Positions 59,008-60,389 of a stretch of 64,000 nt of DNA are shown here, piece by piece. The DNA comes from Candidatus Magasanikiibacteriota bacterium (lineage in GTDB: Bacteria > Patescibacteriota > Patescibacteriia > Magasanikbacterales > GWA2-37-8). The DNA is taken from positions 71,333 to 135,332 of the forward strand of contig CAWJAS010000002.1 in NCBI GenBank assembly GCA_963840935.1. Direction: 5' to 3'. The stretch's first letter is position 1. The number at the start of each line of letters is the position of its first letter. The notes under the pieces were generated by a model. It was not told the origin of the DNA. It was given only the letters and a program-made list of their open reading frames with translations, and made no database searches. Both the position numbers and the translations under genes were made by a program.

Positions 59008-59237
59008 CATAATTAAAAAAACGCACAAAGTGCGGTTTTTTATTTGTGAGGTCGAAGCGACCAAACTGCTTTGGTCGCGTCTGGATTCGAACGCCGGAGC
59101 GATGTTTGGCGAGCTTGCGGGCGAGACAAACCGCGAGGCGGTGGCTAGACCGCGAGGTCGGAAGACCGAGCGAGTCGAAGCCGACTCCCAGGCGACCCAC
59201 ATAATTAAAAAAACGCACAAAGTGCGGTTTTTTATTT
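58994..59237 (+). repeat. 52-bp perfect direct repeat (tRNA-Lys 3' end plus its terminator). Copies at 58994..59045 and 59186..59237 flank a 140-bp element
   Basis: tcccaggcgacccacataattaaaaaaacgcacaaagtgcggttttttattt occurs twice, 192 bp apart. Confidence 0.85.
59046..59185 (+). other. Conserved tRNA-associated element, copy 1 (structured-RNA-like; possibly the core of a miniature integrative element)
   Basis: It is homologous to 60228..60370. A 52-nt block (cgaacgccggagcgatgtttggcgagcYtgcgggcgagacaaaccgc) is 51/52 identical between copies. Covarying hairpins: gcgaccaaa-ctgc-tttggtcgc vs gcgactaaa-cagt-tttagtcgc, and ggtc-GGAA-gacc vs aattttc-GGAA-gaaaatt. The copy ends in the tRNA-Lys 3' end. 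The overlapping 69-aa ORF 59030..59239 is not considered coding. Confidence 0.5.
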
Positions 59238-59945
59238 AGCTAAGTATTTCTTTCTTTCTTTTTCGGGAAACTTCTCAATGGCGTAACGAAGCATCGTTCT
59301 TGGCATTTCAAATTTATGGCAATCAAGGAATTTTTTTTCAATTTGCTCCCCGCAATTCTTTCCAACCTCGCGTAACATCCAACCAACGGCTTTGTGAATC
59401 AAGTCATGCTTATCATGCAATAAAATCTTTGATAATTTTAGCGTCCAAGCGCAATCCCTTTTCTTAATAAAGTAATACGAAGCAAGAATGGCCACTCGCC
59501 TACTCCATAAATGTTTACTTTTTGCTAGCTTTATTAATATTTTTTTATCTTTATCAAATAAATAATCGCCGATTATTTTGGGTGCGGATAAATCAACCAA
59601 ATCCCAATTGTCAATATAATGCAGATTTTTCAAATATATTTGAAAAATTTTTTTCTTTTCTCTCAACTCCGACTCTTCATATTTAAAAACCAAAATAAAC
59701 AAAGCTGTTAACCGTGCCTCGTGATAATGACTCCGTAATAAACTAACCACTTCATCAAAAGAAATTAAAGAAAAATATTTTTTGGCCATTTTCCTTTGAT
59801 TTGGCACAACGATACCCAAAAATTTATCACCATAACCATATTCTCCCGGTCCTGTTTTAAAAAAACGTTGCAAAATTTTTGCTTTATGGGAATCAGACAA
59901 ACTATGTAATTCATTATTAATTGTATTTAAATAATTTGGCATATC
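59232..59945 (-). CDS. DNA alkylation repair protein (AlkD-like HEAT-repeat DNA glycosylase family)
   Basis: The start is taken at MPNYLNTINNE (59945); the longer track ORF would run into the tRNA fragment at 60000. HEAT-repeat blocks WDLVDLSAPKIIGDYL, LWSRRVAILASYYFIKK and HDLIHKAVGWMLREVG are typical of the AlkC/AlkD-like family. Confidence 0.6.
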   Translation of the reverse strand, partial: DMPNYLNTINNELHSLSDSHKAKILQRFFKTGPGEYGYGDKFLGIVVPNQRKMAKKYFSLISFDEVVSLLRSHYHEARLTALFILVFKYEESELREKKKIFQIYLKNLHYIDNWDLVDLSAPKIIGDYLFDKDKKILIKLAKSKHLWSRRVAILASYYFIKKRDCAWTLKLSKILLHDKHDLIHKAVGWMLREVGKNCGEQIEKKFLDCHKFEMPRTMLRYAIEKFPEKERKKYLAK

Positions 59946-59999
59946 ATATTGACAAATGATAGTGTATACTATACATTTAAGAAACAATTTTCGCAATTT

Positions 60000-60033
60000 G
60001 CCCCTATAGTTTAATGGATAGAATATCAGGCTT
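60000..60033 (+). repeat. 34-nt copy of the tRNA-Arg(TCG) 5' half (acceptor through anticodon nt 34-35), 90 bp upstream of the intact gene
   Basis: GCCCCTATAGTTTAATGGATAGAATATCAGGCTT is identical to 60124..60157 and diverges in the anticodon loop. It is followed by the hairpins cggttttgt...acaaaaccg and cccgcc-tttat-ggcggg. Confidence 0.7.
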
Positions 60034-60123
60034 TGCCGGTTTTGTCTGTGAACGAAGAGAGCGGATACAAAACCGAGCATCCCGCCTTTATGGCGGGACG
60101 AACCTTTCCAATAATATAATTTA

Positions 60124-60195
60124 GCCCCTATAGTTTAATGGATAGAATATCAGGCTTCGAACCTGAAGATGGGAGTTCGATTCTCTCTGGGGGCA
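60124..60195 (+). tRNA. tRNA-Arg (anticodon TCG)
   Basis: GCCCCTATAGTTTAATGGATAGAATATCAGGCTTCGAACCTGAAGATGGGAGTTCGATTCTCTCTGGGGGCA. Anticodon loop CTTCGAA, T-loop TTCGATT. A terminator aaaaccatattaatggttttt follows. Confidence 0.85.
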
Positions 60196-60227
60196 CAAAA
60201 ACCATATTAATGGTTTTTATGACCACA

Positions 60228-60389
60228 AGCGACTAAACAGTTTTAGTCGCGTGAGAAATCGAACGCCGGAGCGATGTTTGGCGAGCCTGCGGGCGAGACA
60301 AACCGCAATTCGCCAACTGGCGAAGGTGGCTAGACAAAATTTTCGGAAGAAAATTTTAGTCAGAAGCCAATTCTCTCTGGGGGCACAAA
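60228..60389 (+). other. Conserved tRNA-associated element, copy 2. It ends with a 19-nt copy (60371..60389) of the tRNA-Arg(TCG) 3' end
   Basis: The evidence is as for copy 1. The terminal ttctctctgggggcacaaa duplicates 60181..60199. The element abuts the RBS (aaggag) of the gene at 60418. Confidence 0.5.

Follow-up and report, generated by a model that had tools for sequence, protein, structure and literature searches.

Two homologous units behind tRNA-Lys and tRNA-Arg

The window analysed here is a 64-kb stretch (64,000 nucleotides, nt) of contig CAWJAS010000002.1 from a Candidatus Magasanikiibacteriota bacterium, and it carries two copies of a previously undescribed, structured element of ~150-190 bases for which the name tRNA-tail hitchhiker element of Patescibacteria (bacteria that belong to the candidate phyla radiation, CPR) is proposed. 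The first copy (Lys unit, 59046-59199) lies directly behind tRNA-Lys(CTT) and the second (Arg unit, 60221-60389) directly behind tRNA-Arg(TCG), both on the plus strand, and a covariance model of the element found only these two copies in the window. An AlkD gene (59232-59942, minus strand) lies between both units; it is unrelated to the element and had been taken into the interval 59046-60389 by a first-pass annotation made from the sequence alone.

The two units showed 89% identity over 80 ungapped nt (59055-59134 versus 60227-60306) and the 27-mer CGAACGCCGGAGCGATGTTTGGCGAGC occurred exactly twice in the window with 0 occurrences expected (100 shuffles), which bore out the homology proposed in that annotation. 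The near-identical block measured 48 nt with 1 mismatch (59087-59134 versus 60259-60306) and not 52 nt with 51 identities as had been claimed. The stretches GGTGGCTAGAC and AGTC(A)GAAGCC(G/A)A, listed there as conserved, were found in both units, and the compensatory changes described for two hairpins were seen to keep the pairing: the first hairpin (H1) reads GCGACCAAA/TTTGGTCGC in the Lys unit versus GCGACTAAA/TTTAGTCGC in the Arg unit, and the GGAA-capped hairpin reads GGTC-GGAA-GACC versus AATTTTC-GGAA-GAAAATT. Each copy also ended in a duplicate of the 3' end of its tRNA, as had been noted (Lys, 56 nt with 98% identity; Arg, 20 nt with 100%). The unit spacing was 192 nt (Lys) and 190 nt (Arg). 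The terminator hairpin that the annotation had counted as part of a ~190-bp unit stands between tRNA and unit in only approximately half of the units of the family. Antisense segments matched to the tRNA, the start of the duplication at T-loop position 56 and duplicates of tRNA 5' ends further upstream had all been missed.

For the Lys unit, the intact tRNA-Lys(CTT) was called at 58935-59007 by ARAGORN and by the Rfam tRNA model with 63.9 bits. Its last 18 nt (58990-59007) are the proximal copy C of the repeat, and the complete proximal direct repeat (58990-59045) contains tRNA positions 56-73, a terminator hairpin (59022-59034, terminator scan) and a T-run. The distal direct repeat C' (59182-59237) contains tRNA-Lys positions 56-73 (59182-59199) and then a second terminator copy (59214-59226, terminator scan); these two repeats are the 56 nt with 98% identity returned by the repeat search. 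An acceptor-5' mimic, GGTCG (59050-59054), complements CGACC in the acceptor 3' strand of the distal copy and gave the outer stem in RNAfold. It is followed by hairpin H1 (GCGACCAAA-CTGC-TTTGGTCGC, 59057-59078), an inverted repeat of 9 pairs with compensatory changes across 31 copies, and by the antisense guide TCTGGATTCGAAC (59080-59092), which matches the reverse complement of positions 53-65 of tRNA-Lys (CTGGGATTCGAAC) apart from a 1-nt deletion in the G run. Arm A (59092-59140) has the helix CGCC/GGCG, an internal loop GGA/GA, GCG/CGC, a covarying P2 and a loop of ~15 nt with CGA...GAG, and arm B (59142-59183) has TGGCT/AGCCG, GAC/GTC and a covarying 9-bp P6 with a GGAA cap.

For the Arg unit, the intact tRNA-Arg(TCG) was called at 60124-60195 (ARAGORN and Rfam) and the proximal repeat copy at 60180-60199 (repeat search). 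A linker hairpin with a T-run, AAAAACCATATTAATGGTTTTTA (60197-60219, inverted repeat in the sequence), separates the tRNA from the unit. The acceptor-5' mimic GACCACA (60221-60227) is degenerate with 5/7 pairs to TGGGGGC, and is followed by H1 (GCGACTAAA-CAGT-TTTAGTCGC, 60229-60250, inverted repeat) and by the antisense guide TGAGAAATCGAAC (60252-60264), which corresponds in the same way to positions 53-65 of tRNA-Arg (GAGAGAATCGAAC), reverse-complemented and with 1 nt deleted; in both window guides the deletion falls in a homopolymer or dinucleotide run. The conserved core with arms A and B (60264-60369) was matched by covariance model R1 with 81.5 bits and contains an extra hairpin, TTCGCC-AACT-GGCGAA (60309-60324). 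Finally, the distal direct repeat C' (60370-60389) contains tRNA-Arg positions 58-73 followed by CAAA and is 100% identical over 20 nt to 60180-60199.

Census, hosts and distribution

Syntenic sibling loci (L001-L004) were reached via close AlkD homologues. Among species-representative genomes, a pattern scan yielded 18 true loci (L005-L023 without L014), and a pattern scan of metagenome contigs gave 17 more, 5 of which were repeats of genome loci. The locus L014 (Acidobacteriaceae) from the genome scan was rejected as a chance pattern match, since the covariance model gave no match to it. This model was built on 31 copies and run on 345 kb of collected sequence, in which it produced 41 strong matches that correspond to 36 distinct copies from Patescibacteria genomes and metagenomes, including diverged copies behind tRNA-Pro and tRNA-Gly (both in L035). 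The pattern scans demanded exact anchors, so the diversity of the family is under-sampled.

A tRNA gene on the same strand was found within 90 nt upstream of 31 of the 36 copies. The remaining five were at contig ends (L038 and L040), without an intact tRNA (L006 and L036) or 2.5 kb from the tRNA (L033). Every copy with sufficient readable upstream sequence had the orientation of the tRNA strand, and the distance from tRNA to core was 39-89 nt in 28 of 29 tabulated units. The partner tRNAs had 11 specificities: Lys, Arg, Ser, Leu, Gly, Asn, Val, His, Gln, Tyr and Pro. No ORF (open reading frame) or recombinase was found inside the unit among the copies, and no integrase between tRNA and unit in the 36 copies. 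A full-text search of the literature returned no description of the element.

The hosts were Magasanikbacteria, Yanofskybacteria, Minisyncoccia and other Patescibacteria metagenome-assembled genomes (MAGs). The element was also present in MAGs labelled 'uncultured Gammaproteobacteria' (L008, L011, L012, L015, L017, L018 and L020). One of them, L015, has part of the local synteny of the window, with tRNA-Lys beside AlkD and tRNA-Arg close by. Several of these MAGs share window synteny and the labels are probably wrong.

Fold and covariation

The consensus unit has, from 5' to 3', a linker, often a purine-rich segment of 5-7 nt, H1, 1-4 bases, a 13-nt segment, arm A, a G, arm B and a tail of tRNA-derived sequence. 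The linker is a terminator hairpin, a GAACGAAGTGA-type motif or a few bases only. H1 has 9 bp and a tetraloop, and the 13-nt segment 5' of the core ends in GAAC or GGAC. Arm A is composed of CGCC/GGCG, a GGA/GA internal loop, GCG/CGC, a P2 of 6-7 bp and a loop closed by C-G and tandem G.A pairs, while arm B has UGGCU/AGCCG with a conserved U.G, GAC/GUC and a 9-bp P6 capped by GGAA.

In the alignment of 31 sequences, standard pairs were present in 94.2% of cells compared to 82.1% in shuffled alignments. Changes on both sides of a pair were counted at 17 pairs in 123 cells, which was reached by 0 of 500 shuffles, and pairing decreased to 30-42% when partner columns were slid as a control. Even the near-invariant CGCC/GGCG helix had two G-C to A-U exchanges. 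Compensatory changes thus exceeded both the shuffled and the slid controls, as in a generic structured non-coding RNA, and the comparison supports a predicted fixed fold with H1, a closing stem and two conserved arms, one of them capped by GGAA. The conserved U.G pair was found in 25 of 31 copies and accounts for most of the excess of G.U over A.C cells (39 versus 8). Tandem G.A pairs were common. This excess and the tandem G.A pairs place the fold on the tRNA-sense strand, as RNA or single-stranded DNA. In addition, GCCGGAGCGATG, CCGCGAGGCGGTGGCTAGAC, GGAA and AGTCGAAGCC in the core were invariant across Patescibacteria classes.

Antisense segments matched to the local tRNA

Immediately 5' of the core, 13 nt form the reverse complement of the preceding tRNA at its positions 53-65, with a complete match (13/13) in L001, L005, L007 and L029. 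Across 29 units, tRNA positions 53-56 and 59-64 were each complemented in 22-29 units; position 55 was tracked in 29/29, position 64 followed all four bases and position 65 was not tracked. The guide bases opposite 57-58 were often a fixed GA variant which would give tandem G.A pairs. When units were reassigned to other tRNAs, the observed complementarity was reached in 0 of 20000 permutations. T-loop variants TCCGAAT, TTCAAGT, TTCGACT and TTCAAAT were accompanied by guides with TTCGGAC, CTTGAAC, GTCGAAC and TTTGAAC, respectively. The variants therefore appear as reverse complements, which ruled out a direct copy of the T-stem 5' strand and T-loop. The Lys and Arg window copies were near-identical in H1 and over the first 48 nt of the core, with the 13-nt guide in between swapped as a block.

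The segment 5' of H1 complemented the 3' strand of the unit's own acceptor stem, with a score that was reached in 1 of 20000 permutations. This acceptor mimic was absent in the short-form units L016-18, L023, L024 and L030 and degenerate in many more, and it was not re-matched within one clade of Ser units. When paired, both antisense segments and the distal tRNA copy would form the equivalent of an acceptor stem stacked on an extended T stem. The unit may thus mimic the top half of a tRNA, with H1 placed where the D and anticodon arms would emerge and the two-arm core in place of the T-loop.

Direct repeats, empty sites and dynamics

The duplicated tRNA segment starts at C56 inside the T-loop, usually ends 0-5 nt past the discriminator base and has a length of 18-24 nt; it was longer in the window Lys unit (W_Lys) and in L010, L015 and L016. 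The Lys site was occupied in the window, L001, L007, L015 and L028 and empty in L002 and L004, where a terminator stands directly after tRNA-Lys. The Arg site was occupied only in the window, and the unit was absent there from L001, L002, L007 and L015. In L001, the outer terminator after the distal copy was that of the empty site in L002 and the inner terminator matched L007; the insert therefore carries its own terminator.

Two full units in tandem were found in L010. In L007, L015 and L016 a second unit follows the distal copy and breaks off in H1, and decayed or interrupted distal copies were present in L005, L011, L012, L017, L020, L021, L025 and L029. For the variable stems, copies of the same genome behind different tRNAs were 70-86% identical compared to a median of 55% for other pairs. 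The window Lys copy was 70% identical to the window Arg copy (W_Arg) versus 36-51% to the Lys copies of other genomes.

The first-pass annotation had made its proposal depend on further copies, on their position, on covariation in a larger alignment and on empty sites in siblings. Each was borne out: there are 36 distinct copies, nearly all directly 3' of a tRNA and ending in the 3' terminus of that tRNA, covariation holds with 31 sequences and the empty sites are precise.

Comparison with known RNAs and mobile elements

A search of 58500-60700 with cmscan against Rfam 15 (E ≤10) produced the two tRNAs and sub-threshold noise only, in line with the earlier statement that no described RNA family was recognised. 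ARAGORN found four ordinary tRNAs in the window and none in the units. The unit has no 7-nt anticodon loop and its T-loop is replaced by the core, so that it is neither a tRNA nor a tmRNA. The GTCTGGATTCGAAC segment recalls the D-loop analogue of a tmRNA 5' end. This likeness stems from its being a T-arm in reverse complement; a matching acceptor is missing from the Arg copy, and no tmRNA was called by ARAGORN. ORFs of 50-52 aa cross both copies, but the compensatory helix changes would scramble the peptide, and a small protein was rejected. Hammerhead and other self-cleaving ribozymes, parts of group I or group II introns, signal recognition particle (SRP) RNA and retron RNA were also rejected, with no Rfam signal and misfitting junctions. 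A group I intron in a tRNA gene interrupts the sole copy of that gene, measures at least ~200 nt and is recognised by a P3-P8 core, a U at the 5' splice site and a 3'-terminal G. Here, an intact and uninterrupted tRNA precedes the unit, the core is ~100 nt and ends in C, and there was no Rfam intron match. For a retron non-coding RNA, the genes downstream are AlkD on the opposite strand and a membrane protein without Pfam match, and there is no reverse transcriptase.

Among mobile elements, genomic islands and cis-mobilizable elements (CIMEs) that integrate at tRNA genes resemble the unit in their insertion at the 3' part of the tRNA with a breakpoint in the T-loop, their replacement 3' end often followed by a terminator, the flanking direct repeats of a tRNA segment and their presence or absence between relatives. 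The unit likewise has flanking repeats of the 3' segment with the tRNA restored and both occupied and empty sites, but no integrase was found in it, and the phage, plasmid and viral sets held no related autonomous element. It further differs in its length of ~150-190 bp, near-constant size and lack of genes, in the use of one core at 11 or more tRNA species, in the tRNA-matched antisense segments and the covarying single-strand fold, and in having no known integrase partner. A phage- or plasmid-borne attP was rejected as there was no blastn match in phage and plasmid sets. Bacterial miniature inverted-repeat transposable elements (MITEs), such as the Rickettsia palindromic and Correia elements, are also small, non-coding, multi-copy and folded with inverted-repeat ends and direct repeats. 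In contrast to these, the unit has a strict site and orientation behind tRNA genes, its direct repeat is 18-24 bp or more and not 2-10 bp, and its 'terminal inverted repeat' is the sequence of the target tRNA itself, so that its inverted segments vary between copies along with the local tRNA; no parent insertion sequence (IS) was found.

The mascRNA, viral tRNA-like structures, the YrlA module and the tRNA-like domain of tmRNA share with the unit an acceptor-on-T-stem helix around a body that is not a tRNA, and they adjoin or are fused to tRNA-type 3' ends. They differ from the unit, which has a two-arm insert of ~100 nt in place of the T-loop, no D-loop/T-loop elbow, an acceptor half that is often missing and a 3' strand that is an exact copy of the neighbouring tRNA. 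Finally, IS110 bridge RNA, IS200/IS605 omega RNA and TIGR-Tas RNAs also have short target-complementary segments beside conserved hairpins, and CPR bacteria are known to host unusual RNA-guided systems. In contrast, the unit has no associated protein gene, another size and fold and a target-derived duplication, and no cognate recombinase or TnpB/IscB gene adjoins any locus. TIGR-Tas systems have tandem-guide RNAs and occur in CPR bacteria and phages (PMC12045711). Their arrays contain many tandem units of 36 nt with two 9-nt spacers each beside a Nop-domain Tas gene (PMC12045711). The units here are single and 150-190 nt long and a TIGR array was rejected on this anatomy.

A proposed miniature element of tRNA genes and its alternatives

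The anatomy, the fold, the tRNA match, presence and absence between relatives, tandem and truncated copies and the higher similarity within genomes were all observed directly. The explanation preferred here, in which we place about even confidence, is a family of miniature, non-autonomous elements (~150-190 bp, no ORF) specialised for the 3' ends of tRNA genes in Patescibacteria. It fits best with units that are minimal and constant in size, carry no gene and restore the tRNA, with sites that are empty in siblings, with copies found in tandem or truncated, and with the likeness of copies inside one genome. The integrase-less miniature element and the tRNA-tethered RNA family, both named at first pass, are still the leading explanations.

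For a miniature element, the proximal copy would complete the functional tRNA, often with a terminator after it, and the distal copy would be the displaced one. Arrival and amplification would proceed by recombination inside the 18-24-bp tRNA segment with an enzyme supplied in trans, either by Campbell-type insertion of a small circle that brings the replacement 3' end or by staggered-cut insertion that duplicates the tRNA segment, and loss would follow from recombination between both repeat copies. As RNA or single-stranded DNA of the tRNA-sense strand, the antisense segments (12-13 nt against positions 53-65 and, in many units, 5-7 nt against the acceptor 3' strand) would pair with the distal copy and enclose the core, and they may determine or stabilise the choice of tRNA.

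Several points weigh against a mobile element. The rewriting of the guide and of the replacement 3' end for a new tRNA has no explanation, and the patterns of similarity and of presence and absence could arise without any transposition if ancient units were fixed at each tRNA, their cores underwent gene conversion and a unit was occasionally deleted. The invariance of the core suggests a constrained function that a purely selfish element does not need, and the type of P6 stem roughly tracks the host lineage, as would suit vertical descent. None of the 36 copies had a linked recombinase, transposase or reverse transcriptase. Phage and plasmid collections gave no blastn match to the element, and in viral contigs there were only chance pattern matches, none with a match to the covariance model. 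All sequences were MAGs or metagenomic contigs, and no circular or free form was seen among them.

A host or domesticated family of tRNA-linked RNA genes is a somewhat improbable explanation. By this account, read from the sequences, the unit would be transcribed with the tRNA or by read-through, and the acceptor/T-stem mimic would allow RNase P, RNase Z and the CCA-adding enzyme to release a stable RNA of ~150 nt; its two arms may bind a protein or act in tRNA metabolism, and the copies would have spread by local duplication and been kept alike by gene conversion. The location of the copies downstream of the tRNA on its sense strand is as expected for such a gene, and approximately half of the units have no intervening terminator; however, the other half, including both window copies, stand behind a terminator-like hairpin and T-run, with no promoter-like site found upstream of these terminator-preceded units. 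Complementarity between the acceptor-5' mimic and the acceptor 3' strand of its own unit is significant, but the mimic is missing in the short-form units and degenerate in many others, and processing of the RNase P type is for this reason not universal. The strand-specific fold (U.G in 25/31; G.U 39 versus A.C 8; tandem G.A), the strong invariance of the core between Patescibacteria classes and the lack of copies in viral and plasmid collections also argue for an RNA gene, whereas the sibling genomes showed that the unit is dispensable at any given tRNA and the distal copies are often decayed or interrupted.

The miniature element could also be a retargetable insertion module, although we regard this as unlikely. 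Its transcript or single-stranded DNA would carry 12-20 nt antisense to tRNA positions 53-72, split by H1, that pick the T-loop for a host- or trans-encoded enzyme, and the guide and 3' end would be re-templated at each jump. If true, this would account for one core on at least 11 tRNA species.

Quite unlikely in our view is RNA-guided insertion according to the logic of IS110 bridge or IS200/IS605 omega RNAs, in which the unit would be a guide RNA with the arms as a protein scaffold and 12-20 nt antisense to positions 53-72 of the tRNA gene would, by analogy, bring to the T-loop a recombinase or nuclease that is encoded elsewhere. The order of hairpin, guide and structured scaffold fits this logic, the guide straddles the insertion point (53-55 to the left of the duplication and 56-64 to the right), and between the window copies the guide was replaced as a block with near-identical flanks. 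The tracking of position 55 in 29/29 units also points to this, but it is explicable by pairing within the unit, because the last base of the core, a C, can pair with the guide base opposite 55. Bridge and omega RNAs sit within their own elements, and no transposase or recombinase adjoined any of the 36 copies; there was also no Rfam match to known guide-RNA families. IS110 and IS200/IS605 chemistry is not known to yield a duplication of 18-24 bp.

Direct repeats of tRNA 3' ends starting in the T-loop are the classic signature of integration by tyrosine integrases. Relics of integrase islands or prophages at tRNA genes, with an attR and an attP arm left by internal deletion, would explain these repeats, the L033 unit, which closes a 2.5-kb array of other inserts behind tRNA-Lys(TTT), and the L036 unit beside an excisionase-like HTH gene, but they are very unlikely, as random deletion would not yield the uniform minimal size (39-89 nt from tRNA to core in 28/29 tabulated units), the core is a covarying single-strand fold and not a set of duplex protein-binding sites, no integrase-bearing version was found, and the phage, plasmid and viral collections held no similar sequence.

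Other modules around the tRNA genes

The tRNA genes of the window and of related loci are accompanied by further repeats. The first 13-14 nt of tRNA-Lys are repeated 127 nt upstream (58807-58820) with a GC-rich structured spacer of ~113 nt (58807-58934). This 5' duplicate was present in the window and in L001 (5043-5170, minus strand) and absent from L002 and L004, and it co-occurs with the 3' unit. At tRNA-Arg, the corresponding 5' pseudo-copy is a partial duplicate at 59997-60033, with the first 34 nt at 60000-60033. The order of this pseudo-tRNA-Arg (59997-60123) is positions 1-34, a two-hairpin insert of 65 nt (60034-60098), tRNA positions 35-41 (CGAACCT, 60099-60105), a promoter-like AT-rich stretch and then the real tRNA. 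The insert is located at TT|CGAA of the anticodon loop, a hexamer identical to that of the T-loop, and starts with GCCGG like the core of the 3' unit. Three tandem copies of the module, each with an extra 35-nt palindrome in the D-loop, were found in L002 (3460-3945, minus strand) and none in L001.

The motif GAACGAAG(T/A)GA stands right after tRNA discriminators, in the place of the terminator, in the linkers of L006, L008, L010, L011, L012, L022, L027, L029, L036 and L039. It is also present in the hairpin loop of the anticodon-loop insert (window 60050-60061, and L002) and reads like the core flanks GAAC|GAAG joined. The empty sites of L002 (3290-3400 and 4725-4785, minus strand) have one or two ~40-nt units behind tRNA-Lys and tRNA-Arg. 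Each such unit has ACGC(T/A)(G/A)AGCGT, a short spacer and GGGACGCTGAGCGTCCC-ACA, a 7-bp microhelix ending in ACA like an acceptor end.

Behind tRNA-Lys(TTT) in L033 (1060-3700, minus strand) lies a 2.5-kb array in which three related repeats measure ~0.8 kb each, and the canonical unit stands at its far end. Each repeat has a small ORF of no known family, one of them arginine-rich, and the array contains a different insert of ~95 nt in the frame CTGGGATTCGGAC ... TCCGAAT...CCCAGCCGGGTCACA, which is the antisense/sense T-arm frame seen in the unit. In L036 (175-1575), a copy without an intact upstream tRNA is followed by a MerR/excisionase-like helix-turn-helix (HTH) gene and a DUF4325 gene, and the segment is bracketed by a 22-nt direct repeat, TTCGTTCAGCAATTGCGACGAA. 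Apart from these two L036 genes, the cargo ORFs of L033 and L036 gave no informative Pfam or PHROG family. The anticodon-loop insert and the L033 cargo suggest a wider, unexplored family of loop-targeted insertions at tRNA genes of Patescibacteria.

Partial forms were also present. An H1-type hairpin (GCGACCAAA-TAGT-TTTGGTCGC) and a second hairpin lie behind tRNA-Arg in L015 (3820-3900) with no core, and behind tRNA-Arg(GCG) in L006 (3159-3290) there is a shortened form that has just an arm-A-like part and is accompanied by a matched guide, CAGGAATCGAA, and an acceptor-only duplicate. In the window, the trailer of tRNA-Leu(CAG) (6898-6953) has a nested hairpin, CAATTCCG...CCCCGAG-TTCA-TCTCGGGG...AAGTCGAAGCGGAATTG. 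The 3' strand of this hairpin recalls how arm B ends (AGTCGAAGCC); there was no tRNA duplicate and no covariance-model match, and the hairpin may be a relic or a separate module.

Upstream of tRNA-Lys, the RNase III gene of the window (58020-58785) is present as two overlapping frames (58020-58586 and 58423-58785) versus a single ORF of 254 aa in L001-L004; the split is a frameshift or an assembly error. In L004 only among these siblings, a gene of PF05635 (23S rRNA intervening-sequence protein family) was found between RNase III and tRNA-Lys (1049-1396).

Significance

Under either explanation, the units are a well-supported RNA or DNA family with a covariance model, which explains the recurrent 'partial tRNA' signals beside tRNA genes and is relevant to the annotation and assembly of CPR MAGs. 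Should the unit be a host RNA, CPR bacteria would have a new structured RNA, widespread, highly conserved and linked to tRNA genes. If the unit is mobile, it would be the smallest known type of element that targets tRNA genes, one without genes that restores an essential gene and matches many tRNAs base for base, and the mechanistic question would be how the guide and the replacement end are rewritten. A retargetable module, if true, would define a new class of mobile elements that are guided by nucleic acid and mimic the top half of a tRNA. Mobility would also point to a so far undescribed recombination or processing activity in Patescibacteria; these bacteria are hard to culture and their mobile elements are poorly known.

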